DNA of 39,917 bases from Escherichia phage vB_EcoA_ASO2B, in sequence record MZ726794.1; one strand, written 5' to 3'. The first letter of the stretch is position 1. Each line of letters starts with the position of its first letter. The notes under the pieces are model-generated. The model made no database searches. It worked only from the letters and a program-made list of their open reading frames with translations, and was not told the DNA's origin. Both the position numbers and the translations under genes were made by a program. This document shows positions 734 to 36,832 of the stretch, piece after piece.

Positions 734-784
734 CTACAGGGCCTTTGAGTCTACATCTGAAGGCCCTGACTGATAGTCACTAAC
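734..784 (+). promoter_or_regulatory. RNase III-type processing hairpin (R0.3-like) preceding first early gene
   Basis: agggcctt...aaggccct inverted repeat followed by ctgactgatagtcactaac, a motif recurring before successive early genes; preceded by gctctttaacaatctgg, as found upstream of T7 R0.3. Confidence 0.45.
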
Positions 785-791
785 TTAACGG

Positions 792-1046
792 ATGAACACT
801 ATGAAACACTTAAGCACAATCACTAATCACAATGAAGTATTCGTGAACACTAAAGGTTATGCGTGGATTCAGCTTAAAGAGATGACAGGAGCGCGTCACC
901 GTGTGGTAGTGCGCAAGGTCTCAAGCAAGCCGTTCAGCAACTACAGCATAGATACTGTGCGCATAGACAACGAGACCTACCTGATAGATTCGCAGATAAC
1001 CGTGAGTCCTACAGCGGGCGTCTCAGCTCCTTATTTCGCTAACTGA
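792..1046 (+). CDS. Hypothetical early protein (84 aa)
   Basis: ORF exactly fills the gap between two R-site hairpins in the early region; weak SD; no recognisable family. Confidence 0.45.
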   Translation: MNTMKHLSTITNHNEVFVNTKGYAWIQLKEMTGARHRVVVRKVSSKPFSNYSIDTVRIDNETYLIDSQITVSPTAGVSAPYFAN

Positions 1047-1066
1047 GAGTGATTAACTACAGGTCG

Positions 1067-1101
1067 TTAGACTTATAGCGGCCTGACTGATAGTCACTAA
1101 C
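1067..1101 (+). promoter_or_regulatory. RNase III-type processing hairpin upstream of ocr
   Basis: ctacaggtcgttagacttatagcggcctgactgatagtcactaac; shares the gcctgactgatagtcactaac arm with the site at 734-784. Confidence 0.45.
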
Positions 1102-1119
1102 AACTGAGAGGATATAACT

Positions 1120-1650
1120 ATGGAACGTAACGCTAACGCATACTATGAGCTGCTGGCTGCAACCGTTGAGCTGTTCAATGAGCGTATTCAGTGCGACGAA
1201 ATAGCTGAAGGCGATGACTACAGTGATGCGCTGCATGAGGTCGTAGACGGTAATGTTCCGCATTATTACCACGAGATTTACACGGTGATGGCTGCTGATG
1301 GTATTGACAATGAGTTCGAAGACTCTGGGCTGATGCCTGAGACCAAGGACGTAACGCGTATACTACAAGCTCGCATCTATGAGGCACTGTATAACGATGT
1401 GTCTAATAGCTCTGAGGTGGTCTGGTTTGAGGCTGAAGAGGAAGACGAAAAGGCTGAAGAGGAAGACGAAAAGGCTGAATATTGGGTAGTTGACACTAGA
1501 ACAGGCGAGATAATTGAGGCAGCTGTATCACTTTGCGAGGCTATTGCATGTGCAAAAGAACTCTATGAGGAAGGTTTTCACATGCAAGTCGAAGACATCA
1601 ACGATAACGTAGTGTTCGATCCTGAGGCTGCTGAGGAGGACTGCGAGTGA
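1120..1650 (+). CDS. ocr: Ocr-like DNA-mimic anti-restriction protein (T7 gene 0.3 homolog), 176 aa with extended acidic C-terminus
   Basis: Translation contains [43 protein letters not shown], closely matching the T7 Ocr core ([43 protein letters not shown] as I recall it); strong SD gagagga; highly acidic. Confidence 0.85.
   Translation: [176 protein letters not shown]
1432..1479 (+). repeat. Perfect 21-bp tandem duplication (gctgaagaggaagacgaaaag x2 plus partial third) inside ocr
   Basis: Seen directly; encodes [16 protein letters not shown] in the acidic tail of Ocr. Confidence 0.85.
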
Positions 1651-1817
1651 TGGTAACTTATGGTCTCTGCCAGCACCACGTCACCAACGCCCGGCTTATG
1701 GTCAAGACCGGGAGATTAAACCACGAGGAGTCTATGCGTCTCTTGAAAGTGGTCTACAGGAGACGCAAGCGCATACACGACAGCCTACACGCTGAGGACA
1801 AGAAATATTTACCATAG
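1650..1817 (+). CDS. Possible small basic early protein (55 aa), start overlapping ocr stop (TGATG)
   Basis: ATG at 1650 overlaps the ocr TGA (1648-1650); ORF MVTYGLCQHHVTNARLMVKTGRLNHEESMRLLKVVYRRRKRIHDSLHAEDKKYLP ends at TAG 1815-1817; below the ORF-track size cutoff; occupies the gap before the next R-site. Confidence 0.25.
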   Translation: MVTYGLCQHHVTNARLMVKTGRLNHEESMRLLKVVYRRRKRIHDSLHAEDKKYLP

Positions 1818-1856
1818 CCTGACCATAACGCTGACAGGTGGGTACTGAGTGTTAAA

Positions 1857-1902
1857 CTACAGGTCATCTACATGGTGGCCTGAGTGATTACCACTTGATA
1901 AC
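1857..1902 (+). promoter_or_regulatory. RNase III-type processing hairpin
   Basis: ctacaggtcatctacatggtggcctgagtgattaccacttgataac; shares caggtcat...ggtggcct with the late R-sites. Confidence 0.45.
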
Positions 1903-1919
1903 TACAGAAGGAAAGAATA

Positions 1920-2267
1920 ATGACTGCTAAAACTCGCAATGTATTCTCGGTAGCATTTAAACTCAACGTTGTTAACTACTACACCTCTCTGCCTGAGGGA
2001 GTTATGGATAGGGTGACTGAAACCGCCCAAAAGTTCGGGGTGGGAACGAGTTCGGTGAAGCGCTGGTTTACTCAGTATATCCGTGGTGAGCTTGCCATGG
2101 AAAACGCTATTGCGGTGAGTCGCCGGCCTTCTAAGGTAATAACAGGTGATATTTACCACCTTGCAGGAAAGGACTTCAAGTCCAAAGAGGAGGCGATACG
2201 CTATGCGGTTGAGCTTGCTGGTGGGCTGACTGTAAGCAAGATGACCACTGTATCGGTGGAAGTGTAA
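1920..2267 (+). CDS. Hypothetical early protein (115 aa) with probable N-terminal helix-turn-helix
   Basis: SD aagga 8 nt upstream; N-terminal segment VVNYYTSLPEGVMDRVTETAQKFGVGTSSVKRWFTQY resembles the HTH of IS3-family transposase N-termini (pattern recognition only). Confidence 0.5.
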   Translation: MTAKTRNVFSVAFKLNVVNYYTSLPEGVMDRVTETAQKFGVGTSSVKRWFTQYIRGELAMENAIAVSRRPSKVITGDIYHLAGKDFKSKEEAIRYAVELAGGLTVSKMTTVSVEV

Positions 2268-2277
2268 CCGTGTAAGG

Positions 2278-2345
2278 CCTAGCTGAGTGATAGACGAGAG
2301 GTCATCGACTGATAGGTGGCCTCAAAGATTACCACTTAAATTGAT
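2278..2345 (+). promoter_or_regulatory. RNase III-type processing hairpin
   Basis: aggcctagctgagtgatagacgagaggtcatcgactgataggtggcctcaaagattaccacttaaattgatag; paralog of the site at 1857-1902. Confidence 0.4.
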
Positions 2346-2442
2346 AGAGGTTAACTATGAGTGTTGGACATTGGGTATGCTTATCTCCGGTCATCTTTCT
2401 GATAGCTTGGGGGATATACGACTGTATTAAACGGAAATCACT

Positions 2443-2640
2443 ATGAGTCTTGCACTATTGATAGCCATAGGCTATGGACTTATCGCCTACGTGCTGGTGA
2501 GAGACATCAATAAAGCGCATAGAGTATACAAATTAAACTATGTACGTCTGGGCCGCTGGACTGTACGTCAACCTAACGGACGATTCATGCGCAACTTAGC
2601 GAACGTCTGGGATATAGCAACTATTGGGAGCAAACTGTAA
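2443..2640 (+). CDS. Hypothetical small membrane protein (65 aa)
   Basis: N-terminal hydrophobic helix LALLIAIGYGLIAYVLV followed by a basic tail; stop overlaps next start (TAATG). Confidence 0.4.
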   Translation: MSLALLIAIGYGLIAYVLVRDINKAHRVYKLNYVRLGRWTVRQPNGRFMRNLANVWDIATIGSKL

Positions 2641-2900
2641 TGAAAACCGTATACATTAACAAGCCATCTATCCGTAGCCGTATAGAGCAAATACAGCGTG
2701 ACGAGTTCTTACATCGCCGCATGAAGGCTGAGGGCCATGAATCCGAACTGATGTGTCTGGCGTATGGTGGACGACCAATCACTGACGATGGTAAACTTTT
2801 AGTCTCAGGCTGGAAGGCGATGGACCAACGGTCAACCATCAAGCACACGACCAATGGTGACTTCAGCCATCTCCACGCTAACCAACTGATATGCAAGTGA
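2640..2900 (+). CDS. Hypothetical early protein (86 aa)
   Basis: ATG overlaps upstream stop (translational coupling); occupies the slot immediately upstream of gene 1 where T7 has the 0.7 kinase, but is far too small to be a kinase. Confidence 0.45.
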   Translation: MKTVYINKPSIRSRIEQIQRDEFLHRRMKAEGHESELMCLAYGGRPITDDGKLLVSGWKAMDQRSTIKHTTNGDFSHLHANQLICK

Positions 2901-2905
2901 TTATG

Positions 2906-2926
2906 ACTTAACTATCACTTTAGGAC
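2906..2926 (+). promoter_or_regulatory. Phage RNAP promoter variant (ttaactatcactTtagga) upstream of gene 1
   Basis: Matches the 11-member promoter family except A->T in the TATA element. Confidence 0.5.
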
Positions 2927-2997
2927 TAAAGGTCTAAGACTACAAGTGAAAGACCAAAGAGACTCTAAGTGAAAGACTAATAACAAGGACTTTAAGT

Positions 2998-5679
2998 ATG
3001 AGCGTCATCTCTATTGATAAACACGACTTCTCTGATGTGTCGAACGCCATTGAGCCGTTTAACCTGCTGGCTGACCACTACGGGCAGGACCTTGCAGTCA
3101 AGCAGCTTCAGCTTGAGCATGAGGCATACACTGAAGGCGAGCGACGTTTCATCAAAAACCTTGAGCGACAGACTGAGCGCGGGGAACTGGCAGACAATCA
3201 GGTCGCCAAGCCTTTGATGCAGACTCTGGTTCCTAAGATTGCGCAAGCCGTCAGGGAGTGGTATGAAGGTCCAGACGGGAAGCTGTCAACCTCTCGTCCT
3301 AGCGTAGCGTTCACCATGTTAAGCACCGAAGAGAAGGCCGTCAAGGACCGCTCTCTGCGTATCCCTTGCGAGTCTGCTGCGGTCATCATACTGAAGGTCA
3401 TACTCTCCAAGCTGGTAAAGCCTGAAGGGATACCGATTACACCGATGGCCTCCGCGATAGGTCGCACACTTGAGGACGAAATCCGCTTCGGTCGCATCCG
3501 TGACAAAGAGAAAGAGCACTTCAAGAAGGCGATAGCTGATAACCTGAATAAGCGGGCCGGGGCGTCCTACAAGAAAGCCTACATGCAAGCGGTCGAGACA
3601 TCCATGCTGGAGCAAGGCCAACTGGAAGATGCGTGGGGAACTTGGAGTCCTACAGAGGCTGTCCACGTGGGCATCAAGATGCTTGAGATTGTCATCCAGT
3701 CAACACAACTGGTCGAGCTTAAGCGGTACGGTGCTGGCAATGCAGCGGCTGACGTAGAGATGGTCCACCTGTCAGACTTCTGGGTAAAGAAGATGGCACA
3801 ACGAGGATTCAGCCTTGCGGGTATAGCTCCAGTCTACCAGCCTTGCGTCGTTCCACCTAAGCCGTGGACTGGTGTCGTAGGTGGTGGGTACTGGGCCAAA
3901 GGTCGCAGACCGCTACCCCTGATTCGCTTAGGGTCTAAATCAGCGGTGGCACGTTATGAAGACGTATACATGCCTGAAGTCTATGACGCTGTGAATATCA
4001 TCCAGAATACACCTTGGAAAGTGAACAAGAAGGTACTGGACGTGGTGAACATGGTCGAGAAGTTGAACAAAACGCCTATTGATGACATCCCTCAGATGGA
4101 GCCACTGAAGCCTGAAGACTATGCGGGTGAGACTGAGGAGGAACTCAAGGCATGGAAGAAGGCTGCTGCTGGTATCTATCGCCGCGAGAAGGCCCGACAG
4201 TCGCGAAGATTGTCACTGAGCTTTATCGTTAACCAAGCGAACAAGTTCTCTCAGTTCAAGGCCATCTGGTTCCCGTACAACATGGACTGGCGTGGGCGCG
4301 TCTACGCTGTGCCGATGTTCAACCCTCAAGGTAACGACATGCAGAAAGGTCTCCTTACTCTGGCAGTCGGTAAGCCTATTGGTGCTGACGGTTTCAAATG
4401 GCTGAAGGTCCATGGTGCAAACTGCGCGGGTGTTGATAAAGTCACCTTCGAGGAGCGCATCAAGTGGGTGGAAGACAACCACGACAACATTATGGCTGCT
4501 GCTAAGGCACCTATGGATAGCATTGAGTGGTGGGGCAAGTTAGACTCTCCGTTCTGCTTCCTTGCGTTCTGCTTCGAGTATGCTGGTGTAATGCATCACG
4601 GATTGTCTTACTCCTGCTCATTACCGATAGCGTTCGATGGGTCATGCTCAGGGATTCAGCACTTTAGCGCGATGCTTCGTGATCACATAGGTGGACATGC
4701 AGTAAACCTAACGCCTTCCGGTAAGGTCCAAGACATCTACCGAATCGTGTCCGACCGCATTGAGGAAGAGCTTAAAGTCCTGCTGGTTAACGGCACAGAC
4801 AACGAGATGGTAACTCACGAGGACAAGAAAACTGGTGAGATTACCGAACGCCTCAAGCTGGGGACACGAGAGCTGGCCCGGCAGTGGCTGACTTACGGCA
4901 TGTCACGCAAGGTCACTAAGCGTTCAGTAATGACTCTGGCCTATGGGTCGAAAGAGTACGGCTTCGCAGACCAAGTTTATGAGGACATCGTGATGCCGGC
5001 GATTGACTCAGGGTCTGGCGCTATGTTCACCGAACCAAGCCAAGCGTCCCGCTTCATGGCTAAGATGATTTGGGAAGCTGTGAGCGTGACCGTAGTTGCT
5101 GCGGTTGACGCAATGAAGTGGCTTCAGGGTGCTGCCAAGCTGCTGGCTGCTGAAGTGAAGGACAAGAAGACTGGAGAAATCCTGAAGCCTTGCCTTCCGG
5201 TACACTGGGTAACACCTGATGGTTTCCCGGTCTGGCAGGAATACCGCAAGAAGGATACCACCCGTCTGAATCTGATGTTCTTAGGGTCATTCAACCTTCA
5301 ACCTACGGTCAACAAAGGCATGAAGAAAGAGTTGGACAAGCAAAAGCAGGAGTCAGGCATTAGCCCGAACTTCGTCCACTCACAAGATGGTAGCCACCTA
5401 CGCAAGACTGTAGTCCACACGCACCGCAAGTATGGCGTGATGTCCTTCGCAGTGATTCACGATAGCTTCGGGACCATCCCTGCTGACGCTGAGTATCTGT
5501 TCCGTGGTGTCCGTGAGACGATGGTCGAGACCTACCGCGATAACGATGTGCTGCTTGACTTCTACGAGCAGTTTGAATACCAGCTTCACGAGAGCCAGCG
5601 CGACAAGTTACCTGAGCTTCCGAAGAAAGGTAAACTGAATATCGAAGACATTCTGTCTTCAGACTTTGCATTCGCTTAA
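2998..5679 (+). CDS. Single-subunit DNA-dependent RNA polymerase (T7 gene 1 homolog), 893 aa
   Basis: Size and position as T7 RNAP (883 aa); C-terminus ...DFAFA as in T7; conserved segments e.g. RRPLPLIRLGSKS, FDGSCSGIQHFSAMLRD, HDSFGT. Confidence 0.97.
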   Translation: MSVISIDKHDFSDVSNAIEPFNLLADHYGQDLAVKQLQLEHEAYTEGERRFIKNLERQTERGELADNQVAKPLMQTLVPKIAQAVREWYEGPDGKLSTSRPSVAFTMLSTEEKAVKDRSLRIPCESAAVIILKVILSKLVKPEGIPITPMASAIGRTLEDEIRFGRIRDKEKEHFKKAIADNLNKRAGASYKKAYMQAVETSMLEQGQLEDAWGTWSPTEAVHVGIKMLEIVIQSTQLVELKRYGAGNAAADVEMVHLSDFWVKKMAQRGFSLAGIAPVYQPCVVPPKPWTGVVGGGYWAKGRRPLPLIRLGSKSAVARYEDVYMPEVYDAVNIIQNTPWKVNKKVLDVVNMVEKLNKTPIDDIPQMEPLKPEDYAGETEEELKAWKKAAAGIYRREKARQSRRLSLSFIVNQANKFSQFKAIWFPYNMDWRGRVYAVPMFNPQGNDMQKGLLTLAVGKPIGADGFKWLKVHGANCAGVDKVTFEERIKWVEDNHDNIMAAAKAPMDSIEWWGKLDSPFCFLAFCFEYAGVMHHGLSYSCSLPIAFDGSCSGIQHFSAMLRDHIGGHAVNLTPSGKVQDIYRIVSDRIEEELKVLLVNGTDNEMVTHEDKKTGEITERLKLGTRELARQWLTYGMSRKVTKRSVMTLAYGSKEYGFADQVYEDIVMPAIDSGSGAMFTEPSQASRFMAKMIWEAVSVTVVAAVDAMKWLQGAAKLLAAEVKDKKTGEILKPCLPVHWVTPDGFPVWQEYRKKDTTRLNLMFLGSFNLQPTVNKGMKKELDKQKQESGISPNFVHSQDGSHLRKTVVHTHRKYGVMSFAVIHDSFGTIPADAEYLFRGVRETMVETYRDNDVLLDFYEQFEYQLHESQRDKLPELPKKGKLNIEDILSSDFAFA

Positions 5680-5694
5680 TAACAGGAGAAGTAT

Positions 5695-5925
5695 ATGTCA
5701 ATGAAACTTGTAGCACACAACAAAGCATTCAACGATGGGTCGGGACGTTGTCATGTAGAGCTGACTTATAAGGATTTAGTCATTCTCAGAGACAGATTAC
5801 AAGCTGGTGTTACTGGGTGGATTCAACCTAACGAGTACAACCTTATCGCTTCGATTGACGAAGTGCTTAACGCGTGGAGGGAAGACGAGCGCACTCAGTA
5901 TCCATCATTCCCTACAATTAGATAA
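5695..5925 (+). CDS. Hypothetical protein (76 aa) downstream of RNAP
   Basis: SD aggaga 7 nt upstream of ATG; no family recognised. Confidence 0.5.
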   Translation: MSMKLVAHNKAFNDGSGRCHVELTYKDLVILRDRLQAGVTGWIQPNEYNLIASIDEVLNAWREDERTQYPSFPTIR

Positions 5926-5935
5926 GGAGCTAGTT

Positions 5936-6151
5936 ATGAAATTTGCACACAAGCATACTGGCGTTAATGGTGGGACTCAAATCGTGACCGTAACAGAACA
6001 CAACGGCGCGGGTCTGGTGAAGACCACGGTCATCCCGACCAAGATGTCCAAGCAGCTTAACATCCCGTTCAAGACTCTTGTAGATCTGGTCGAGTCCAGC
6101 CACGAGAAGTACCTGAAGGACGCAGTGTCCAAGCTGGAGCAGGCCAAATGA
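5936..6151 (+). CDS. Hypothetical protein (71 aa)
   Basis: Internal ATG at 5936 of track ORF 5807..6151, preceded by SD aaggag (5924-5929); the longer track ORF would overlap the upstream gene. Confidence 0.5.
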   Translation: MKFAHKHTGVNGGTQIVTVTEHNGAGLVKTTVIPTKMSKQLNIPFKTLVDLVESSHEKYLKDAVSKLEQAK

Positions 6152-6225
6152 CAGACCTACAGTCACTGGCCTTGTGGCTAGGAGCACTCGCAGTATTCAC
6201 TTTAATCCAACGCAGAAGAGGTTAA

Positions 6226-6248
6226 CCCTAAACTATCACTATAGGATT
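6226..6248 (+). promoter_or_regulatory. Phage RNAP promoter (ctaaactatcactatagga)
   Basis: Consensus core; position equivalent to T7 phi1.1. Confidence 0.75.
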
Positions 6249-6292
6249 AGACTCAAGGTCATGACTCAAAGTCGTGGCCTTCATGATTAACC
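6248..6292 (+). promoter_or_regulatory. RNase III-type processing site (R1.1-like)
   Basis: tagactcaaggtcatgactcaaagtcgtggccttcatgattaac; same motif at 13468 and 36784; resembles T7 R0.3 (actcaagg...gtgccctttatgat). Confidence 0.55.
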
Positions 6293-6321
6293 CTAACGTA
6301 AACTACTGGAGATTTAACCAC

Positions 6322-6501
6322 ATGTATCAGAACACTATCAACTTTGAGCGCATCCGTGAACGTCAGCAGACTGAAGACTACATCCCGAAGGGACGCAAGC
6401 TGAACAAGATCAAGCGTGGTGGTGGTGTCAAAGGCGCTTTCCGTAATGCTGAAGGTAAAGACTCTCTGGTCAACCAAGAGAAATACTTCGTAGGAGCATA
6501 A
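6322..6501 (+). CDS. gp1.1-like small basic protein (59 aa)
   Basis: Internal ATG 6322 with SD ggag; contains KGRKLNKIKR like T7 gp1.1 (KGRKLNKTKR); the upstream part of track ORF 6274..6501 lies within the R-site. Confidence 0.6.
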   Translation: MYQNTINFERIRERQQTEDYIPKGRKLNKIKRGGGVKGAFRNAEGKDSLVNQEKYFVGA

Positions 6502-6505
6502 CCAA

Positions 6506-6769
6506 ATGGGCCGACTTTATAGTGGCATCCTCAACGCTTTCAGAGCAGCGTGTAACAGGCTCTACCAGTTAGACTTCGCTGTTATATCTCAGGAGTTTCA
6601 AGACCATGTGTCACGCCAAGAGTGCATGAGACTCAGGGTGGAGGACCGAGCTGGTAACATCTTCGCGCTTGAGACCTTCACACACTACGATGAAGACGTG
6701 CTGTATAATACTGCAACCAACTACCTCAACGGTCTCGCTGACCATATCGACACATGGAGCAAAGCATAA
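6506..6769 (+). CDS. gp1.2-like protein (host dGTPase inhibitor homolog), 87 aa
   Basis: Begins MGRLYSG..., with ...HYDEDVLYN, matching T7 gp1.2 (MGRLYSGNL..., HHDEDVLFN). Confidence 0.85.
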   Translation: MGRLYSGILNAFRAACNRLYQLDFAVISQEFQDHVSRQECMRLRVEDRAGNIFALETFTHYDEDVLYNTATNYLNGLADHIDTWSKA

Positions 6770-7845
6770 TGACAACTATTAAAACCAACCCGCACCGCGC
6801 TGTAGATTACTCTGAGTCTGGCGTTAAGAAGGCACTGGAAGCAGCCGGGTCTCTGGAAGCTGAAGTGAAGTACGACGGTGTGCGCCTGAATCTCCCGGTC
6901 CTGCGTGAAGGTGAGACCTACTGGCTGAGTCGTGAGTCTAAACCTCTTCCAGCCTTGGAGTGGATGAACTCTGAGTTAGGGAATGCGTGGACCCAAGCTG
7001 ACTGGCGCTGGTTCCTACGTCAAGCTGGCTACGAAGGTGTGGGCATGATGATTGATGGCGAGGTCATGGTCAAAGGTGTAGACTTCAACACCTCCTCAGG
7101 TCTCATCCGCACGAAGTGGCTGAAGCCTAACAACGAGGAGTTCGCTGAATGCTATCCGTGGCGCGGTAAGAAGGTCCCGTTCTGGGCCGCCCGGTCAAGA
7201 CTTCAGGTTGTGGTATACGGTGTCGTAGACATGACAACCATTGCTGACCCGAAAGCCGAAGGTCCTATCCATAGCGTCACACGCCTGAAGGCCGAAGCTA
7301 TCGTCCCTCTCCTCCAGAAATACTTCCCGGAAATCGACTGGGTTCTGTCTGAGTCACACACGGTCTATGACCTTGAGTCGCTCAACTCCCTGTACGAAGA
7401 GAAGCGTCTGGAAGGACATGAGGGTCTGGTAGTCAAAGACCCGCTTGGTAAGTGGAAGCGTGGCAAGAAGTCAGGCATGTGGAAAATGAAGCCTGAGGAT
7501 ACCATCGACGGGACCGTATGCGGACTCGTGTGGGGGACTCCGGGTAAGGCTAACGAAGGTAAGGTCATCGGCTTCGAGGTTCTGCTGGAGGACGGAATGG
7601 TAGTTAATGCTTGTGGTCTGACTGAAGAACAGAAGGACGAGTTCACAGCTAACGTCGCTGAATCTAGTGGTTATACCTTGGCTGGTGGCCCTGTGGTTAT
7701 TCAGGATGGGACCGAGAAGATCAACCCATACGAAGGCTGGCAGTGCGAAGTCCTCTTCATGGAGCGGTTCCCAGATGGTTCCCTTCGTCACCCTAGCTTC
7801 AAGTGCTGGCGCGGAACGGAAGATAACCCAACTGTTAAGAGTTAA
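6754..7845 (+). CDS. ATP-dependent DNA ligase (T7 gene 1.3 homolog), 363 aa
   Basis: Adenylation motif KYDGVR (EVKYDGVRLN); size as T7 ligase (359 aa); followed by the early terminator. Confidence 0.92.
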   Translation: MEQSIMTTIKTNPHRAVDYSESGVKKALEAAGSLEAEVKYDGVRLNLPVLREGETYWLSRESKPLPALEWMNSELGNAWTQADWRWFLRQAGYEGVGMMIDGEVMVKGVDFNTSSGLIRTKWLKPNNEEFAECYPWRGKKVPFWAARSRLQVVVYGVVDMTTIADPKAEGPIHSVTRLKAEAIVPLLQKYFPEIDWVLSESHTVYDLESLNSLYEEKRLEGHEGLVVKDPLGKWKRGKKSGMWKMKPEDTIDGTVCGLVWGTPGKANEGKVIGFEVLLEDGMVVNACGLTEEQKDEFTANVAESSGYTLAGGPVVIQDGTEKINPYEGWQCEVLFMERFPDGSLRHPSFKCWRGTEDNPTVKS

Positions 7846-7855
7846 CTAAATTTCA

Positions 7856-7895
7856 ACCCAGTGGTCTTAGCGGACTGCTGGGTTTCTTTGCTTTG
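7856..7895 (+). terminator. Early rho-independent terminator (TE-like)
   Basis: Stem AACCCAGTGGTC / GACTGCTGGGTT (7856-7885, with G-U pairs), loop ttagcg, then tctttgctttg. Confidence 0.7.
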
Positions 7896-7929
7896 TGCTA
7901 GCAAGCTATAGTCTTGGCCACCAGCTAGA

Positions 7930-7952
7930 CCCTAAGCTATCACTATAGGACA
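7930..7952 (+). promoter_or_regulatory. Phage RNAP promoter variant (ctaagctatcactatagga)
   Basis: Core atcactatagg present; upstream aaGctat variant. Confidence 0.65.
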
Positions 7953-7977
7953 ACCATCAACAACCTAAGGAGACTCT

Positions 7978-8232
7978 ATGTCTAAGAACTTAATGTTCAA
8001 CCGTTATACCGATACCTTCCACCTGTCCAACAACCCGTTTGCTTGCATTAAGCGTAACGAGAAGCTGGGCTACTTCGGGAAGGCCGTTAAGCTGTCACCT
8101 ACAGTCTTCGCTCTGATTACTCCGGGCAAAGCTGAAGAGGCTCGCCAGAAGCGCGAGACCAGCGTACCTGTGGTCTACACTAAGTGGCCTCGTGTTCGCC
8201 TGTTCGTTGAGTTCGTGAAGGAGGTGTTCTGA
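7978..8232 (+). CDS. Hypothetical protein (84 aa), gene 1.6 position
   Basis: SD aaggag upstream; stop overlaps next start (TGATG). Confidence 0.5.
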   Translation: MSKNLMFNRYTDTFHLSNNPFACIKRNEKLGYFGKAVKLSPTVFALITPGKAEEARQKRETSVPVVYTKWPRVRLFVEFVKEVF

Positions 8233-8774
8233 TGGGATGCATAGCTTGCTTAGAGAAGGATGACCGTTATCCACACACCTGTAATAAAGGAGTTAACAAC
8301 ATGACTGAACGCGAGCAAGAAATGATCGTGAAGCTGGTAGACAACAACGAAGGTCGCCCAGATTATTTGGATGGCTGCGGGATCCTTTGCTCTAATGTCC
8401 CTTGCCACCTCTGCCCCGCAAACAACAATCCCAAAATAACCTTAGGTGAAATCCGAGCGATGGACCATCGTAAGTCTAATCTGGATAAACAAGAGGTAAC
8501 TCCTACAGATGGCCAACCTTCCACTGAGTCAATCGACGCTGTCCGCAAGCCGTCCCACTATCAGGTCTTTGATGGTGTGGAATCCATTGAGATTATCGCT
8601 CGGTCCATGACTGTCAGTGAGTTCCGTGGCTTCTGCGTGGGTAACGTCCTGAAGTATCGACTCCGAGCTGGTAAGAAGTCCGAGCTGGCTACTATGGAGA
8701 AGGACCTAAACAAAGCGGCCTTCTATCAGGAGCTGTTCGACCTGCATAAAGGCAAGTGCTATGCTGCCGAGTGA
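8232..8774 (+). CDS. Probable gp1.7-like nucleotide kinase (180 aa)
   Basis: Synteny and size match T7 gene 1.7; Cys-rich N-terminus (CIACLEKDDRYPHTCNKG, CGILCSNVPCHLCP); sequence similarity to T7 gp1.7 is recalled, not verified. Confidence 0.6.
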   Translation: MGCIACLEKDDRYPHTCNKGVNNMTEREQEMIVKLVDNNEGRPDYLDGCGILCSNVPCHLCPANNNPKITLGEIRAMDHRKSNLDKQEVTPTDGQPSTESIDAVRKPSHYQVFDGVESIEIIARSMTVSEFRGFCVGNVLKYRLRAGKKSELATMEKDLNKAAFYQELFDLHKGKCYAAE

Positions 8775-9144: not shown

Positions 9145-9185
9145 GACGTCAAGTTTGTAACTTTTAAATGAGGAGATTTACACCA

Positions 9186-11281: not shown

Positions 11282-11497
11282 ATGATTAAAATTATCGAAT
11301 TTCTTGGTCGTCTGGTGGTGCGTGGGTATCGTCGTGCTGCGGTACTGGAACGAAAGGTAGAAAAGAAGAATGCGGACGGTGCGGCTGATGCTGCTGCTCT
11401 GGCTGACAAGCTGACCATCGCGTCACTGGAAGCTGGAATGAAGGCTCGTCAGGCTGATACCAAAGCTGACCAGTTGGCTCAGTTCTTCAAAGCCTAA
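11282..11497 (+). CDS. Hypothetical small protein (71 aa), Ala/Lys-rich
   Basis: SD gggaga upstream; no family recognised. Confidence 0.45.
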   Translation: MIKIIEFLGRLVVRGYRRAAVLERKVEKKNADGAADAAALADKLTIASLEAGMKARQADTKADQLAQFFKA

Positions 11498-11514
11498 ACT
11501 ATCACCTTAGGGAT
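11492..11514 (+). promoter_or_regulatory. Phage RNAP promoter variant (ctaaactatcacCttaggga) upstream of gene 4
   Basis: Family member with a C substitution in the TATA element. Confidence 0.55.
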
Positions 11515-11562
11515 GGGACAATTAGTCCTGTCCCTTTGTTCGCATTTGTGATTAAGGAGTGA

Positions 11563-13299
<1,737 letters not shown>

Positions 13300-13300
<1 letters not shown>

Positions 13301-13464
13301 TGTTACGAAAACTTAAAGCTCGCTACCATCAGTTCATGTACAAATGGTGGAGCGATGAAGCAACCTGCCTGTCGAACATTCTTGGAGACCAGCGGTTCGA
13401 CTCTGAGGCATGGAAGAAAGCTAACCGGAAGTTTATGTATCACTTCTTGCGTACAGACTTCTAG
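13300..13464 (+). CDS. Hypothetical small protein (54 aa)
   Basis: ATG 13300 with SD ggaggg 11 nt upstream; internal start of track ORF 13282..13464. Confidence 0.4.
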
Positions 13465-13467
13465 GTC

Positions 13468-13512
13468 TAGACTCAAGGTCATTCACAGCGAGTGGCCTTT
13501 ATGATTAGACTA
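13468..13512 (+). promoter_or_regulatory. RNase III-type processing site (R4.7-like)
   Basis: tagactcaaggtcattcacagcgagtggcctttatgattagac; same motif as 6248 and 36784. Confidence 0.55.
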
Positions 13513-13527: not shown

Positions 13528-15699
13528 ATGTTTGACCTTAAGAGTATCTGGGGTTCTGACATCGAGACCAACGGTCTCCTTGATACAGTCTCCCAGTTTC
13601 ACTGTGGGGTCCTGATTAACGCCGAGTCGAATGAGACCCTTAAGTATGGGGTAGCTCCGATGGTCGGTATCGTCGGTGGCTTCAAAGAGTATGTTCATAA
13701 AGTGGAAGAGATTGCCGCATCACCTGATGGTATGCTGGTATTCCATAACGGTATCAACTATGACGTCCCTGCTATAGACAAGCTGAAACGTCTGTACTTT
13801 GGGAAACGCTTTAACTTCCCGAAACACAAGATGATTGATACCTTGGTGCTGGGGCGCTTGATGTATCCAAACATTAAGTTCTCAGACATGGGCGCAGTGA
13901 AATCTGGTCGTCTGCCACCTAGTATGATGGGACGTCAGTCTCTTGAGGCTTGGGGCTATCGTCTCGGTGAGATGAAGGGTGAGTACAAACACGATTACGT
14001 TGCCAAATGCAAGGCTGAAGGTATCGAATATAAGGCTGGTGACGAATGGTTGTTCCCGTCTCAGGAGATGCTGGACTATAACGTTCAAGACGTTGTGGTC
14101 ACACTGGCGTTGTTCAAGAAGTTCCTGACTGACAAGTATTACTTCCAGTCTGAACAGTTCGCTTTCGACCAGATTTATGCGTTGCGTCTGGAACACGATG
14201 CTGCGTGGACCTGTGCGAAGATGGAGCGTAACGGCTATCCGATGAACACCGAGATGGTCGAAGGCTTATATCGTGAACTCACCGTCAAACGTGCAGAGTT
14301 GCTGGACAAGCTGCGTTCGACTTTCGGTAGCTGGTACGCACCAAAGGGCGGAAAGGAGTTCTTCAAGCACCCACGTACAGGCAAGGACCTTCCGAAGTAT
14401 CCGAGAGTCGTGTATCCTAAGGTCGGGTCAGTATTCAAGAAGCCGAAGAACAAAGCTCAACGCTTAGGTCTGGAGCCTTGCGAGTTCGACTCACGAGACA
14501 CGATGGAGGGAGCACCGTTCACACCTATCACTTACGTTGAGTTCAATCCGGGAAGCGGGGACCACTTAGCGAAAGTTCTGATGGAGCGTGGCTGGGAGCC
14601 TGTGGACTTCACTGACACCGGGAAACCTGTAGTCGATGACGAGACGTTAGAACACGTTAAGTTGCCAGACGAAGAGGCTCAGGCTTGCGTAGAGCTGGTC
14701 CGTGAGTATCTGGTAGTCCAGAAGCGCATCGGTCAGGCTGCTGAAGGTAAGAACGCATGGTTGAAACTTGTAGGTCCAGACGGACGTATGCACGGTTCAA
14801 TAAACCCATGCGGGGCAGTAACCGGACGTGCGACTCACAGTTCACCAAACATGGCTCAAGTCCCGGCTAACGGTGCTCCATACGGTGAGACTTGCCGTGG
14901 TGCTTTCGGTGCAGCTTGGAACAAGACGGATGGTAAGCCAGACCCTTGGATTCAAGTAGGCGTGGATGCTTCAGGTCTTGAGCTTCGTTGTCTAGGGAAC
15001 CGAGCGGCTCCGTTTGATGGTGGAGACTATGCGAAGACTGTGGTCGAAGGGGACATACACTGGGCCAACGCAGTAAACGCTGGGTTAGCACCTAACGTCC
15101 CACGCGACAAGTCGAGCCACGACCATGATGCTTTCCGTAATAACGCTAAGACGTTCATCTATGCGTTCCTGTATGGTGCAGGGGCCGCGAAGATTGGACT
15201 GATAGTTGGCGGTGGTAAGAAGGAAGGTTCAGCTCTCATGAAGAAATTCATTGAGGGCACACCAGCCATCAAGGACCTCAGGGAAGCTGTGAGTGATACG
15301 TTAATCTCAGACTCTAAGTGGGTGGACGGAGAGAACATCGTCAAGTGGAAACGCCGTTGGTTGCGTGGACTTGATGGTCGGCGTATCCACATCCGGTCTC
15401 CACACTCAGCACTTAACGCCTTACTTCAAGGCGATGGTGCGGTAGTCTGTAAGCACTGGATTGTCGAGACTGAACGTATGCTCGAAGATGCCGGGTATGT
15501 TCACGGCTGGGAAGGTGACTTTGCGTACATGGCTTGGGTTCACGATGAGCTACAGATTGCGTGTCGTACTCAGGAGATTGCCGAAGAAGTCGTCAAGATT
15601 GCTCAACTTGCTATGCGTAAGGTGGGTGAGTTCTATAACTTTAAATGTGTCCTTGATACCGAAGGTAAGATTGGACCAACGTGGAAGGAGTGTCACTAA
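13528..15699 (+). CDS. DNA polymerase (T7 gene 5 homolog)
   Basis: Start at 13528 (SD ggagg); the track start 13492 lies inside the R-site motif. Motifs DIETNGL (exo I), VFHNGINYDVPA, NAKTFIYAFLYGAG, YMAWVHDELQ; the thioredoxin-binding region is present. Confidence 0.96.
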   Translation: MFDLKSIWGSDIETNGLLDTVSQFHCGVLINAESNETLKYGVAPMVGIVGGFKEYVHKVEEIAASPDGMLVFHNGINYDVPAIDKLKRLYFGKRFNFPKHKMIDTLVLGRLMYPNIKFSDMGAVKSGRLPPSMMGRQSLEAWGYRLGEMKGEYKHDYVAKCKAEGIEYKAGDEWLFPSQEMLDYNVQDVVVTLALFKKFLTDKYYFQSEQFAFDQIYALRLEHDAAWTCAKMERNGYPMNTEMVEGLYRELTVKRAELLDKLRSTFGSWYAPKGGKEFFKHPRTGKDLPKYPRVVYPKVGSVFKKPKNKAQRLGLEPCEFDSRDTMEGAPFTPITYVEFNPGSGDHLAKVLMERGWEPVDFTDTGKPVVDDETLEHVKLPDEEAQACVELVREYLVVQKRIGQAAEGKNAWLKLVGPDGRMHGSINPCGAVTGRATHSSPNMAQVPANGAPYGETCRGAFGAAWNKTDGKPDPWIQVGVDASGLELRCLGNRAAPFDGGDYAKTVVEGDIHWANAVNAGLAPNVPRDKSSHDHDAFRNNAKTFIYAFLYGAGAAKIGLIVGGGKKEGSALMKKFIEGTPAIKDLREAVSDTLISDSKWVDGENIVKWKRRWLRGLDGRRIHIRSPHSALNALLQGDGAVVCKHWIVETERMLEDAGYVHGWEGDFAYMAWVHDELQIACRTQEIAEEVVKIAQLAMRKVGEFYNFKCVLDTEGKIGPTWKECH

Positions 15700-17040: not shown

Positions 17041-17166
17041 TCTACTGGGCAGGACTTCTGGCCCTTTACTGCATGTACAAGTGGTTCGGGTCGAACAACC
17101 GTCCTAAACACTGAGTCTAACCGATAGTCATATCCTATTAATCCCACAGTCATCCATAGGTGAAAC

Positions 17167-17189
17167 ACTAAACTATCACTATAGGGACT
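17167..17189 (+). promoter_or_regulatory. Phage RNAP promoter (ctaaactatcactatagggac), phi6.5-like
   Basis: Perfect consensus; begins the late (class III-like) region. Confidence 0.8.
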
Positions 17190-17250
17190 TTAGGACCTAA
17201 GATATGACTATAAGATAGACTTTAGTCTTAACTTAAAGAGGAGATTCAAG

Positions 17251-21007: not shown

Positions 21008-21031
21008 ACTAAACTATCACTATAGGGAGAC
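21008..21031 (+). promoter_or_regulatory. Phage RNAP promoter (phi10-like), full consensus ctaaactatcactatagggaga
   Basis: Only copy with the full GGGAGA start; located upstream of the capsid gene as T7 phi10. Confidence 0.85.
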
Positions 21032-21132
21032 CAAGAGATAGACTCAAGGTTTCCCTATTACTTCAGTCCATACGGATTGGGCATACAGTAAGTAATAAAC
21101 TTTATCTTTCAATTGAATAGGAGAATTATCAT

Positions 21133-25626: not shown

Positions 25627-25651
25627 CTTATTGAAGGGCCTATAGATTTAC

Positions 25652-25674
25652 CTTAACTATCACTATAGGGACTA
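25652..25674 (+). promoter_or_regulatory. Phage RNAP promoter (phi13-like)
   Basis: ccttaactatcactatagggact. Confidence 0.8.
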
Positions 25675-25702
25675 TAGGCCCTTAAGGTTATAAGGAGACT
25701 TT

Positions 25703-26745: not shown

Positions 26746-26756
26746 GAGGAGGACTA

Positions 26757-29039: not shown

Positions 29040-29043
29040 CATA

Positions 29044-32931: not shown

Positions 32932-32949
32932 ACTATCACTATAGGAAAC
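32927..32949 (+). promoter_or_regulatory. Phage RNAP promoter (phi17-like)
   Basis: ggactaaactatcactataggaaac overlapping the gp16 stop. Confidence 0.8.
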
Positions 32950-32995
32950 GGGAGGCGCTATCATAGGTCTCCTTTAATTCATAACAGGAGGCATA

Positions 32996-35900
32996 ATGTC
33001 CACGATTACACAATTCCCTTCAGGAAACACTCAGTACAGGATTGAGTTCGACTACCTCGCCAGAACGTTTATTGTTGTTACGCTGGTGAATAGCTCTAAC
33101 CCTACCCTGAACCGTGTACTGGAAGTTGGTCGAGATTACCGATTCCTTAATCCAACGATGATTGAGATGTTGGTTGACCAATCAGGTTTCGACATCGTTC
33201 GTATTCACCGTCAGACTGGAACTGACTTAGTGGTAGACTTCAGGAATGGCTCAGTGTTGACAGCTAGTGACCTGACCAATTCAGAGCTTCAGGCTATCCA
33301 TATTGCAGAAGAAGGTAGAGACCAAACGGTTGACTTAGCGAAGGAATATGCCGATGCTGCTAGTAGCTCTGCTGGCAACGCTAAGGATAGCGAGGACGAA
33401 GCACGACGAATCGCTGAGAGTATCAGGGAAGCTGGTCTAATTGGCTATATTACCCGTCGCTCCTTCGAGAAAGGCTACAACGTTACAACATGGAGCGAGG
33501 TCCTGCTATGGGAAGAGGATGGTGATTATTACCGCTGGGATGGTACGCTTCCAAAGAACGTTCCTGCTGGTTCAACTCCTGAAACTTCCGGTGGGATTGG
33601 ATTAGGTGCGTGGGTTAGTGTTGGTGATGCTGCTTTAAGAAGTCAGATTTCAAATCCTGAGGGGGCAATACTCTACCCTGAATTACATAGAGCACGCTGG
33701 CTTGATGAAAAAGATGTTCGTGGTTGGGGTGCTAAAGGTGATGGTGTCACTGATGATACAGCAGCGTTAACGAGCGCATTAAACGACATACCGGTTGGAC
33801 AAAAGATTAATGGCAATGGGAAGACATATAAGGTCACGTCCCTGCCTGACATTAGTCGCTTCATCAACACTCGTTTCGTTTATGAGCGCATTCCCGGACA
33901 ACCTCTTTATTATGCCTCTGAGGAATTTGTTCAGGGTGAGTTGTTCAAAATAACTGACACCCCTTATTACAATGCGTGGCCTCAGGATAAAGCGTTCGTA
34001 TATGATAATGTGATATATGCACCTTACATGGGCAGCGATCGTCATGGTGTCAGTCGTCTGCATGTATCATGGGTTAAGTCTGGTGATGATGGTCAAACAT
34101 GGTCTACTCCAGAGTGGTTAACTGATCTGCATCCAGATTACCCTACAGTGAACTATCACTGTATGAGTATGGGTGTATGTCGCAACCGTCTGTTTGCCAT
34201 GATTGAAACACGTACTTTAGCCAAGAACGCATTAACCAATTGTGCATTGTGGGATCGCCCCATGTCTCGTAGCCTGCATCTTACTGGTGGTATCACTAAA
34301 GCTGCAAATCAGCAATATGCAACAATACATGTACCAGACCACGGACTATTCGTGGGTGATTTTGTTAACTTCTCTAATTCTGCGGTAACAGGTGTATCCG
34401 GTGATATGACTGTTGCAACCGTAATAGATAAGGACAACTTCACGGTTCTTACACCCAACCAGCAGACTTCAGATTTGAATAACGCTGGAAAGAATTGGCA
34501 CATGGGTACGTCTTTCCATAAGTCTCCATGGCGTAAGACAGACCTTGGTCTAATCCCTCGTGTCACAGAGGTGCATAGCTTTGCTACTATTGATAACAAT
34601 GGCTTTGTTATGGGTTATCATCAAGGCGATGTAGCCCCACGCGAAGTTGGGCTTTTCTACTTCCCTGATGCTTTCAATAGCCCATCTAGTTATGTTCGTC
34701 GTCAGATACCATCTGAGTATGAACCAGATGCGTCAGAGCCGTGCATCAAGTACTATGACGGTGTATTATACCTTATCACTCGTGGCACTCGTGGGGATAG
34801 ACTAGGTAGCTCTTTGCATCGTAGTAGAGACATAGGTCAGACTTGGGAGTCACTGAGATTTCCACATAATGTTCATCATACTACATTACCTTTTGCTAAA
34901 GTAGGGGATGACCTTATTATGTTTGGTTCAGAACGTGCAGAAAATGAATGGGAAGCAGGTGCACCAGATGATCGTTACAAGGCATCTTATCCTCGCACCT
35001 TCTATGCACGCTTGAATGTAAACAATTGGAATGCAGATGATATTGAATGGGTTAACATCACTGACCAGATTTATCAGGGCGGAATAGTTAACTCAGGTGT
35101 AGGTGTTGGTTCGGTAGTTGTGAAGGATAATTACATCTACTACATGTTTGGTGGAGAGGACCATTTTAACCCATGGGCATATGGAGATAACTCAGCGAAG
35201 GACCCATTCAAATCAGATGGTCATCCCTCAGATTTGTATTGCTACAAAATGAAGATTGGCCCAAGCAATCATGTTTCCCGTGATTTCAGGTATGGTGCTG
35301 TACCTAACAGAGCTGTTCCCGTGTTTTTTGATACGAATGGGATTCGCACTGTTCCTGCGCCAATGGAATTTACAGGGGATTTGGGTTTAGGTCATGTGAC
35401 CCTTAGAGCCAGCACCAGTAGTAACATTCGCTCTGAAGTTTTAATGGAAGGTGAATATGGGTTTATCGGGAAGTCTATACCGACTGATAATCCAGCAGGG
35501 CAGCGCACCATATTTTGCGGAGGTGAAGGCACCAGTTCAACGACTGGCGCACAGATTACGCTTTATGGTGCAAATAACACCGACTCAAGGCGAATAGTTT
35601 ACAATGGTGATGAGCATCTGTTCCAGACTGCTGACGTTAAGCCTTATAACGATAACGCCATTGCGCTTGGTGGGCCAAGTAACCGTTTCACAACTGCATA
35701 TCTCGGAAGCAACCCTATTGTTACTTCTAATGGGGAGAAGAAAACAGAGCCGGTAGTTTTTGATGATGCTTTCCTAGATGCCTGGGGTGACGTTCACTAC
35801 ATCATGTATCAATGGTTAGATGCTGTTCAACTGAAAGGCAATGATGCTCGTATTCACTTCGGGGTTATTGCTCAGCAAATTCGTGATGTATTCATTGCAC

Positions 35901-36190
35901 ACGGTCTGATGGATGAAAACAGTACGAATTGTCGTTATGCCGTTCTGTGTTATGACAAGTATCCACGGATGACCGATACGGTATTTTCGCACAATGAAAT
36001 CATTGAACACACTGACGAGGAGGGTAATGTCACTACTACGGAAGAGCCTGTATTCACTGAGGTGGTTATCCATGAAGAGGGTGAAGAGTGGGGTGTCCGG
36101 CCTGACGGAATTTTCTTTGCTGAAGCCGCTTATCAGAGAAGAAAACTGGAAAGAATCGAAGCCAGACTTTCTGCTCTTGAACAGAAGTAA
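32996..36190 (+). CDS. Tail fibre / tailspike (gene 17), 1064 aa: T7-type N-terminal adaptor fused to sialidase-type (endosialidase-like) depolymerase with C-terminal intramolecular chaperone
   Basis: N-terminus RIEFDYLARTFIVVTL matches the T7 gp17 adaptor (NIPFEYLARKFVVVTL); two perfect Asp-boxes SGDDGQTW (34079-34102) and SRDIGQTW (34823-34846); C-terminal HFGVIAQQ chaperone motif with Ser911-x3-Lys-Lys at 35726. Confidence 0.9.
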   Translation: MSTITQFPSGNTQYRIEFDYLARTFIVVTLVNSSNPTLNRVLEVGRDYRFLNPTMIEMLVDQSGFDIVRIHRQTGTDLVVDFRNGSVLTASDLTNSELQAIHIAEEGRDQTVDLAKEYADAASSSAGNAKDSEDEARRIAESIREAGLIGYITRRSFEKGYNVTTWSEVLLWEEDGDYYRWDGTLPKNVPAGSTPETSGGIGLGAWVSVGDAALRSQISNPEGAILYPELHRARWLDEKDVRGWGAKGDGVTDDTAALTSALNDIPVGQKINGNGKTYKVTSLPDISRFINTRFVYERIPGQPLYYASEEFVQGELFKITDTPYYNAWPQDKAFVYDNVIYAPYMGSDRHGVSRLHVSWVKSGDDGQTWSTPEWLTDLHPDYPTVNYHCMSMGVCRNRLFAMIETRTLAKNALTNCALWDRPMSRSLHLTGGITKAANQQYATIHVPDHGLFVGDFVNFSNSAVTGVSGDMTVATVIDKDNFTVLTPNQQTSDLNNAGKNWHMGTSFHKSPWRKTDLGLIPRVTEVHSFATIDNNGFVMGYHQGDVAPREVGLFYFPDAFNSPSSYVRRQIPSEYEPDASEPCIKYYDGVLYLITRGTRGDRLGSSLHRSRDIGQTWESLRFPHNVHHTTLPFAKVGDDLIMFGSERAENEWEAGAPDDRYKASYPRTFYARLNVNNWNADDIEWVNITDQIYQGGIVNSGVGVGSVVVKDNYIYYMFGGEDHFNPWAYGDNSAKDPFKSDGHPSDLYCYKMKIGPSNHVSRDFRYGAVPNRAVPVFFDTNGIRTVPAPMEFTGDLGLGHVTLRASTSSNIRSEVLMEGEYGFIGKSIPTDNPAGQRTIFCGGEGTSSTTGAQITLYGANNTDSRRIVYNGDEHLFQTADVKPYNDNAIALGGPSNRFTTAYLGSNPIVTSNGEKKTEPVVFDDAFLDAWGDVHYIMYQWLDAVQLKGNDARIHFGVIAQQIRDVFIAHGLMDENSTNCRYAVLCYDKYPRMTDTVFSHNEIIEHTDEEGNVTTTEEPVFTEVVIHEEGEEWGVRPDGIFFAEAAYQRRKLERIEARLSALEQK

Positions 36191-36323
36191 TAAACAAAAC
36201 CCTTTTGCCATTAAGTTGGTGGGTAGATGTTAGAAGGTTGTGGAGTTAGAGGCTAACTACACGCTAGACAACATAAGGTAACAACTTTGGGTCACGGACG
36301 ACCCGCTTTAAACTGGAGGTTTT

Positions 36324-36521
36324 ATGATTGAGTTAGACTTCAAGAATGAGGTCCTTAAAGCCTCTCCTATAGTCGGGACCGCTGCGGCTGATGGTGCCAG
36401 TCGGTTCTTCTTCGGACTTACACTGAACGAATGGTTCTACGTTGCAGCTATCGCGTACACCGTTGTCCAGATTGGTGTGCTAGTCTACAAAACGATTAAA
36501 GGAGGCGGTGGTAAAACATGA
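36324..36521 (+). CDS. Holin (gene 17.5-like)
   Basis: 65 aa with one transmembrane segment (YVAAIAYTVVQIGVLVY); located before the terminase/spanin genes as in T7. Confidence 0.7.
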   Translation: MIELDFKNEVLKASPIVGTAAADGASRFFFGLTLNEWFYVAAIAYTVVQIGVLVYKTIKGGGGKT

Positions 36522-36781
36522 CGCAGATGGACTTAGAGAAGTTCCTCTTAATGCTAGATACTGAACGTGCTCGACTCATGCTGCAAGACCTGCGGGATGA
36601 CACTAAGCGTTCACCTCAGCTCTACAACGCCATTGAGAAGCTACTGGCTCGTCACAACTTTGTGTTAAGCAAGGTGTCTGTTGACGAGAAGACGCTGGCT
36701 GATATGGAGGCCCTGAACGCAGAGTACGATAAGGTGCTCTCCGCTACGGAAGATAATGACACCGGGTATGGTGTTCAATAA
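36518..36781 (+). CDS. Terminase small subunit (T7 gene 18 homolog)
   Basis: FLLMLDTERARLMLQDLRDDTKRSPQLYNAIEKLLARHNF resembles T7 gp18; size 87 vs 89 aa. Confidence 0.8.
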   Translation: MTQMDLEKFLLMLDTERARLMLQDLRDDTKRSPQLYNAIEKLLARHNFVLSKVSVDEKTLADMEALNAEYDKVLSATEDNDTGYGVQ

Positions 36782-36783
36782 GT

Positions 36784-36832
36784 GTTAGACTCAAGGTCAT
36801 TACTGTATGTAGTGGCCTTTATGGTTAACACT
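36784..36832 (+). promoter_or_regulatory. RNase III-type processing site (R18.5-like)
   Basis: tagactcaaggtcattactgtatgtagtggcctttatggttaac; third copy of the 6248/13468 motif. Confidence 0.55.

Follow-up and report, generated by a model that had tools for sequence, protein, structure and literature searches.

Seven hairpins homologous to the T7/T3 RNase III processing sites in the Kayfunavirus genome of Escherichia phage vB_EcoA_ASO2B

Seven short, related elements recur between the genes of Escherichia phage vB_EcoA_ASO2B (sequence record MZ726794.1; the whole stretch of 39,917 nt is hereafter called the window), which raises the question of whether they are processing sites for the RNase III of the host, comparable to the R-sites of phages T7 and T3. 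The window is a complete K1F-like genome of the T7 group (Autographiviridae, Studiervirinae, Kayfunavirus), the first 8 kb of which share 99% identity with Mt1B1_P3 (Kayfunavirus MT1B1P3) and ~93% with K1F, and its open reading frame (ORF) map is T7-like with all genes pointing rightward. The seven elements, which are homologues of the T7 and T3 R-sites, are very probably host RNase III processing sites on rightward polycistronic phage transcripts. At the sequence level, homology, structure, covariation, strand specificity and synteny all speak for this interpretation; we infer cleavage, the exact cut position and effects on mRNA stability and translation.

The elements are referred to by the positions at which they were first noted in an initial annotation of the window (734, 1067, 1857, 2278, 6248, 13468 and 36784). 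All seven are present on the + strand, at or within 0-10 nt of these positions; the starts at 734, 1857, 6248 and 13468 are exact, while the others lie at 1057, ~2282 and 36786. The form described for the middle and late regions (class A) does occur three times, but its literal pattern with a ten-nucleotide spacer has no match in the window even with three mismatches. The relaxed pattern GACTCAAGGTCAT-N(7-14)-GTGGCCTT matches solely at 6250, 13470 and 36788 (chance expectation 0.00), with spacers of 11, 9 and 11 nt, respectively, and none of 10 nt. Furthermore, the 6248 copy carries TTCATG in place of TTTATG and the 13468 copy has the 3' end TTAGAC, not TTAAC. Four elements of the proposed early form likewise exist, but the 21-mer quoted for them, GCCTGACTGATAGTCACTAAC, matches just at 764 and 1081; the 1857 and 2278 copies share a distinct 3' arm (GATTACCACTT), and the 2278 copy reads GAGAGG...CCTC, not CTACAGG...CCTG. 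The core AGGTCAT-N-GTGGCCT, common to five copies (1861, 2299, 6256, 13476 and 36794; 0.02 expected), links 1857 and 2278 to the three class A elements, and the seven fall into three groups of near-duplicates (734/1067, 1857/2278 and 6248/13468/36784).

When folded as RNA, a check suggested by the initial annotation, all seven elements form bulged duplexes typical of T7 R-sites. The minimum free energy folds consist of lower and upper stems of 6-8 and 9-12 bp, respectively, separated by an asymmetric internal loop with 3-5 nt on each side, with energies of -17 to -24 kcal/mol and z scores of -2.2 to -4.5 relative to dinucleotide shuffles. According to the ORF map, every element is intergenic and on the + strand, and in five of the seven, 3-4 G·U pairs make the + strand RNA ~10 kcal/mol more stable than its complement. 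In a MAFFT alignment of the seven elements with 21 sites from T7, T3 and phiYeO3-12 (consensus AGTGnTAnACTCAAGGTCAT…GTGGCCTTTATGATTAnCACT), RNAalifold recovered a two-stem structure with compensatory changes in 11 of 16 pairs. Paired bases occupy 94.4% of the cells of this consensus structure, compared with 30-50% when the partners are slid by 1-3 columns, and its covariation score of 0.539 (0.07-0.12 with slid partners) was reached by none of 500 shuffles. Orthologues of the elements in K1F and EcoDS1 are near-identical, and their substitutions fall in apical loops or preserve pairs, such as a change from C-G to U·G (EcoDS1 at 898) or from U·G to C-G together with A-U to G·U (K1F at 1763).

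The T3 RefSeq record annotates ten stem-loops as 'RNase III recognition site' (R0.3, R0.5, R1, R1.1, R1.3, R3.8, R4.7, R6.5, R13 and R18.5), and an equivalent set is annotated in the phiYeO3-12 record. The seven window elements align column by column with these stem-loops and with the T7 sites, and the T7 regions of R0.3, R0.5, R1, R1.1, R1.3, R4.7 and R18.5 fold alike. The sequence AAGGTC-N-GTGGCCTT is present four times in T7, each copy ending exactly 3 nt before a cleavage coordinate attributed to Dunn & Studier 1983 (1468, 5887, 6448 and 13892). T7 R0.7 was dropped as a reference, since the stretch folded around its presumed coordinate (1971) contained no hairpin.

We trained a covariance model (R2) on the 21 T7, T3 and phiYeO3-12 sites alone; scanning the entire window with filters switched off, it returned precisely the seven elements, all on the + strand, with 59.7, 55.8, 49.3, 39.8, 39.6, 33.5 and 30.5 bits and E values from 2.5e-4 to 8e-11; the next-best match scored 19 bits. 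We rejected as noise a minus-strand model match of just 37 nt inside coding sequence (2424-2460; E ~0.05-0.07, 19-21 bits). In five reference genomes (T7, T3, phiYeO3-12, K1F and K11), R2 gave 36 matches with E<0.01, 36 of 36 on the + strand. Those in T7, T3 and phiYeO3-12 coincide with annotated sites or, for T7, with sites that we take to be established, and the model also detected three R6.5 sites absent from its training set. Six matches each were found in K1F and K11, at positions that appear syntenic; they were judged by gene position alone, as these records annotate no RNase III sites. EcoDS1 has five. Curated Rfam families produced no match at gathering score anywhere in the window.

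The three class A elements share their consensus (ACUCAAGGUC…GUGGCCUUUAUGAUUA) and the arrangement of lower stem, internal loop and upper stem with R1.1, R0.3, R0.5, R4.7 and R18.5 of T7 and their T3 and phiYeO3-12 counterparts, whereas the apical loops and lower-stem sequences differ, and 6248 has CAUGA for UAUGA. In further contrast to those phages, class A is not used in vB_EcoA_ASO2B at sites upstream of gene 1. The initial annotation had placed the three exactly where T7 has R1.1, R4.7 and R18.5, which is correct for the outer two. The 6248 element (6242..6295, + strand; R2 39.6 bits) follows directly on a phage promoter of the phi1.1 type (6229-6247) and precedes gene 1.1 (ATG 6322) and gene 1.2, like R1.1; the promoter abuts the hairpin, as phi1.1 does in T3, and orthologues are found in K1F at 5562 and in EcoDS1 at 6045. 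The 36784 element (36781..36832, + strand; R2 59.7 bits, E 8e-11) is a homologue of R18.5 flanked by gene 18 (stop 36781) and gene 18.5 (ATG 36883). The 13468 element (13464..13511, + strand; R2 49.3 bits) lies directly 5' of gene 5 (ATG 13528), which is the R4.7 position in T3 and phiYeO3-12, while in T7 gene 4.7 intervenes. This element shares its entire 10-bp upper stem (AAGGUCAUUC/GAGUGGCCUU) with T7 R1.1, which serves as the standard substrate in RNase III biochemistry. A site equivalent to R1.3 was sought and none was found; there is no room for one, as genes 1.2 and 1.3 overlap (6754-6769).

The remaining four elements lie in the early region. Three of them carry a C-G pair at the base of the upper stem (class B): 724..782 (+ strand), upstream of gene 0.2 (ATG 792/801), with a fold of -24.2 kcal/mol (z -4.5), 30.5 bits in R2 (E 2.5e-4) and orthologues in K1F at 704 and EcoDS1 at 898; 1048..1098 (+ strand), upstream of gene 0.3 (ocr, ATG 1120), with a fold z score of -3.1, 39.8 bits, -24.1 kcal/mol on the + strand versus -11.9 on the - strand, and an orthologue in K1F at 1027; and 1847..1896 (+ strand; 55.8 bits, E 6e-10), upstream of a gene for 115 amino acids (1920-2267) and within an insertion relative to K1F. 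In an alignment with R1 of T7, T3 and phiYeO3-12, all nine upper-stem pairs of 1847..1896 (CAGGUCAUC/GGUGGCCUG) match T7 R1. The fourth element, 2284..2338 (+ strand), is a variant with a G-C pair at the same place and a different internal loop (GACGAG / CAAAGA); it scores 33.5 bits (E 5e-5) with a fold z score of -2.2, precedes an ORF at 2357-2430 and genes 0.37, 0.38 and 1, and has orthologues in K1F at 1763 and EcoDS1 at 1487, in which the changes preserve pairs.

The two proposed sub-classes differ at one covarying pair, alignment pair 20/51 at the base of the upper stem: A-U (AAGG/CCUU) marks class A and C-G (CAGG/CCUG) marks class B, while 2278 has G-C. What had been called an early form is an R1-type variant, unrelated to timing: R1 of T7, T3 and phiYeO3-12 is class B and their early R0.3 and R0.5 are class A, so that class follows a covarying pair found throughout the family and not an early-versus-late rule. 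The R1 sites of these three phages (UUACAGGUCAUC…GGUGGCCUGAAUAGG) share the CAGG/CCUG upper-stem base with the class B elements of the window, whereas the 3' side of the internal loop reads ACUGA or AGUGA in the window and AAUAG in their R1. Furthermore, T7 and T3 use the R1-type variant solely before gene 1, while in the window it precedes gene 0.2, gene 0.3 and the gene at 1920-2267. Pair 20/51 corresponds to position 3 of the proximal box (pb3) as defined by Pertzev & Nicholson (PMC1540722), whose minimal-substrate consensus has G-C at pb1, W-W at pb2, A-U at pb3 and U-A/U-G in the distal box. The class A sites fit these boxes, and the proximal and distal boxes of 13468 and 36784 are those of T7 R1.1.

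RNase III substrates span about two helical turns, and internal loops limit cleavage to a single phosphodiester; a minimal substrate with defined proximal and distal boxes yields a 28-nt product (PMC1540722). Each RNA element of the window would likewise offer about two helical turns with an upper stem bearing the determinants of both boxes, and Escherichia coli RNase III would bind it and, because of the internal loop, cut the 3' strand only, 2-3 nt below the upper stem. A 28-nt product corresponds to 11 bp per strand, a 4-nt loop and a 2-nt overhang, and with this geometry the cut on the 3' strand falls 13 nt from the loop (CCUU-UAU^GA), in agreement with the +3 offset in T7. The predicted cut context is …GGCCUU-UAU^GA… or …GGCCUG-ACU^GA…, and the predicted cuts fall after nt 771, 1088, 1885, 2326, 6284, 13502 and 36822. 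The upstream mRNA would retain the hairpin as a protected 3' end, since the 3' hairpin left after cleavage shields upstream RNA from 3'-5' exonucleases (PMC1540722), and the downstream mRNA would begin 20-37 nt before a start codon, or 60 nt before that of gene 18.5 (61 nt in T7). A host-type promoter at 462-491 (11 of 12 consensus matches) and the terminator TE at 7855-7884 (from a terminator scan of positions 1-8000) bound the early transcript, which would thus be cut five times into discrete mRNAs.

In-frame ATGs within the elements had been suggested to mislead gene callers at genes 5 and 1.1. They are real at both loci: ATG 6283 is in frame 39 nt upstream of ATG 6322, ATG 13501 is in frame 27 nt upstream of ATG 13528, and the longest ORFs start at GTGs within the hairpins (6274 and 13492). 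The hazard, however, is potential and not demonstrated, as the annotation of the closest relative, Mt1B1_P3, uses the downstream starts (2172 nt for gene 5 and 180 nt for gene 1.1). Many other phage records place coding sequence features, either as 'hypothetical protein' or as extended genes, over homologous hairpins. The predicted cuts at 6284 and 13502 fall within AUG 6283-6285 and AUG 13501-13503, between U and G, so that the processed mRNAs would lack these AUGs.

Several observations weigh against an RNase III role for all seven elements. No transcript-end data for vB_EcoA_ASO2B or K1F were found in the literature searched, and the T7 cleavage coordinates used to place the cut were checked solely for internal consistency (the constant +3 offset at four sites and the 28-nt product geometry). 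Both strands of elements 734 and 6248 give equally good folds, and 2278 combines a divergent internal loop with the weakest fold (z -2.2). Moreover, the C-G of class B and the G-C of 2278 at pb3 deviate from the A-U preference of the minimal-substrate consensus (PMC1540722), by analogy with which class B sites may be somewhat less reactive to RNase III, although C-G at pb3 also occurs in the accepted R1 sites of T7 and T3. Some elements, class B and especially 2278, could on these grounds bind RNase III or just fold while being cut inefficiently, and act mainly as mRNA stabilisers or translational modulators. G-C and C-G substitutions in the proximal box reduce reactivity, and some uncouple binding from cleavage (PMC1540722), which would suit the pb3 pairs of class B and 2278 and the atypical internal loop of the latter. 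We consider this unlikely, as R1 of T7, T3 and phiYeO3-12 share the CAGG/CCUG stem and are annotated RNase III sites, and as the uncoupling position of that study is position 4, which is unpaired here, within an architecture that is otherwise canonical.

Inverted repeats of this kind could also act as DNA palindromes, serving as cassette recombination junctions, replication hairpins or host defence signals, with the RNA structure being incidental. Cloned as DNA, palindromes of T7-type RNase III sites trigger cell death through the DdmABC (Lamassu) system in Vibrio cholerae, and homologous sites are present in a T7-like vibriophage (PMC11707656); in addition, the same R-site precedes different cargo genes across phages, and one cassette junction abuts an R-site. 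Conserved G·U pairs, however, strongly weaken five of the seven elements on the complementary strand, every copy is oriented with transcription, and the positions just 5' of ribosome-binding sites fit a role in mRNA; DNA-level effects would be secondary consequences, and a purely DNA-level function appears very improbable. Least probable of all, to the point of being scarcely credible, is that host or phage RNA polymerase pauses or terminates transcription at the elements. Although the elements are stable, G+C-containing intergenic hairpins, the scan of the first 8 kb, in which a following T-run was required, identified four terminator-like sites including TE and flagged none of the five elements located there. 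The 3' flanks of all seven, read directly, contain no T-run (the two elements beyond 8 kb are judged by this reading only), and essential genes (1, 5 and 19) lie downstream, in several cases with no new promoter in between.

The list of sites in the initial annotation is complete for the canonical type but omits non-canonical hairpins at the positions of R3.8, R6.5 and R13, which match the T3 and T7 sites in position and in relation to promoters. An R3.8-type hairpin of 11 bp without internal loop (11509..11535, + strand; -18.7 kcal/mol, z -3.7) is located after the promoter 11495-11513 and before gene 4. It aligns with T7 R3.8 and with the annotated R3.8 of T3 and phiYeO3-12, shares the 3' tail CCCTTTGTTCGCATT with T7 R3.8, and, like R3.8 of T3 and T7, begins at the 5' end of a transcript and has the conserved CCCUUUGUUCGCAUU tail. 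The hairpins at the R6.5 and R13 positions enclose a phage promoter, as those of T3 and T7 do, and are regarded as candidate RNase III sites only. The hairpin at the R6.5 position (17113..17222, + strand; -31.7 kcal/mol, z -4.0), which encloses the promoter 17169-17187, is built of an 11-bp upper stem and a 7-bp lower stem separated by a 4x4 internal loop, and K1F and EcoDS1 carry it at 98% identity; it bears no sequence relation to the canonical motif, and covariance models gave no match. It remains a candidate since it has the right architecture without the canonical sequence, which R6.5 in T7, T3 and K11 retains; only architecture and conservation argue for it. The hairpin at the R13 position (25634..25683, + strand; z -3.1), with a 12-bp stem, encloses the promoter 25653-25671 before gene 13 and is identical in K1F and EcoDS1. 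T3 and phiYeO3-12 annotate R13 as a stem-loop enclosing the promoter phi13.

A canonical R1 site was sought before gene 1, where there is no significant fold (z -0.37) and no covariance model match; without R1, the gene 1 message would run from the cut at 2326 to that at 6284. The gene 1 leader (2901-2997) contains a phage-promoter-like sequence (CTTAACTATCACTTTAGGAC) at 2907-2926, where EcoDS1 annotates a promoter, and 3' of it a degenerate 5-bp half-site (ACTCAAGGTCT…AGACC in K1F and EcoDS1) together with two copies of AAGTGAAAGAC.

The ORF map places gene 0.3 (ocr) at 1120-1650, gene 1 at 2998-5679, ligase at 6754-7845, gene 4 at 11566-13266, gene 5 from ATG 13528 to 15699 and genes 18, 18.5 and 19 at 36518-39092, all on the + strand, and ten phage promoters were located. 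Gene 0.3 contains a perfect ~21-nt tandem duplication at 1431-1480 (GCTGAAGAGGAAGACGAAAAG x2), which gives rise to an extra in-frame acidic heptapeptide repeat in the Ocr-like protein. Just 3' of gene 1, a 242-bp insertion relative to K1F (5690-5931) encodes a product of 76 amino acids assigned to PHROG 28104 (unknown function), and EcoDS1 has an ORF at the equivalent position. The leader of gene 10 carries a 5' hairpin at 21025-21055 (GGGAGACC…GGUUUCCC), 3' of the promoter 21010-21028. This hairpin includes the 10-mer GACTCAAGGT, identical to the 5' arm of the class A sites; EcoDS1 has it as well, K1F does not. Between the R18.5 homologue and gene 18.5, a 14-codon ORF with a GTG start and GGAGGAG 5' of it (36856-36900) overlaps the start codon of gene 18.5. 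At 1831-1858, overlapping the 5' edge of the 1857 R-site, lies a weak match of sigma-70 type (CTGACA-16-TAAACT, TG upstream); it can be likened to the minor host promoters B and C adjoining R0.5 and R1 in T3, but the number of sigma-70-like matches in this region is not above chance.

Sequences resembling the R18.5 homologue were found in 780 phage records, with hosts including Klebsiella, Escherichia, Salmonella, Yersinia and Vibrio, among others; in T7M, one such match carries the label RNase III site R0.5. For the 1067-type sequence, 109 records were found, mainly of Kayfunavirus and close relatives. The segment 1797-2281 is an insertion relative to K1F that comprises its own R-site (1847-1896) and the 115-amino-acid gene (1920-2267), for which only sub-threshold helix-turn-helix-like Pfam matches were obtained, and on its right it borders directly on the resident R-site at 2284. 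This cassette is found whole in just 13 phage records, including Cronobacter phage GW1 at 91%, while ~115 other phage records match its R-site part only and continue with different genes. As an R-site and a gene were inserted beside a resident R-site, and as the same R-site precedes different genes, R-sites may mark cassette junctions in the early region.

It is conceivable, though doubtful, that R-sites are more than passive processing signals. The A-U, C-G or G-C pair at pb3 could set different RNase III reactivities, in which case processing and stabilisation would differ between the early mRNAs upstream of gene 1 and the messages of genes 1.1, 5 and 18.5. The sites, conserved over ~60 nt, could also serve as homology junctions at which early cassettes, each consisting of an R-site, a ribosome-binding site and a gene, are swapped among phages of the T7 group. 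R-sites as DNA palindromes would also expose the phage to Lamassu-type defence, and the hairpins may be a liability against some defence systems.

The seven elements are clear homologues of the textbook T7/T3 RNase III sites and constitute members of this family that have gone unannotated; they are real but ordinary. The K1F, EcoDS1 and Mt1B1_P3 records inspected annotate no RNase III sites. The T7 family of processing sites is thereby confirmed as conserved in Kayfunavirus; the R1-type variant is used at shifted positions, the R1 site itself has been lost, and no new question is opened. The practical value lies in annotation: once these sites are marked, the true starts of gene 1.1 (6322) and gene 5 (13528) are fixed, and a set of early mRNAs can be predicted for a phage genus employed in phage therapy and in work on the K1 capsule.

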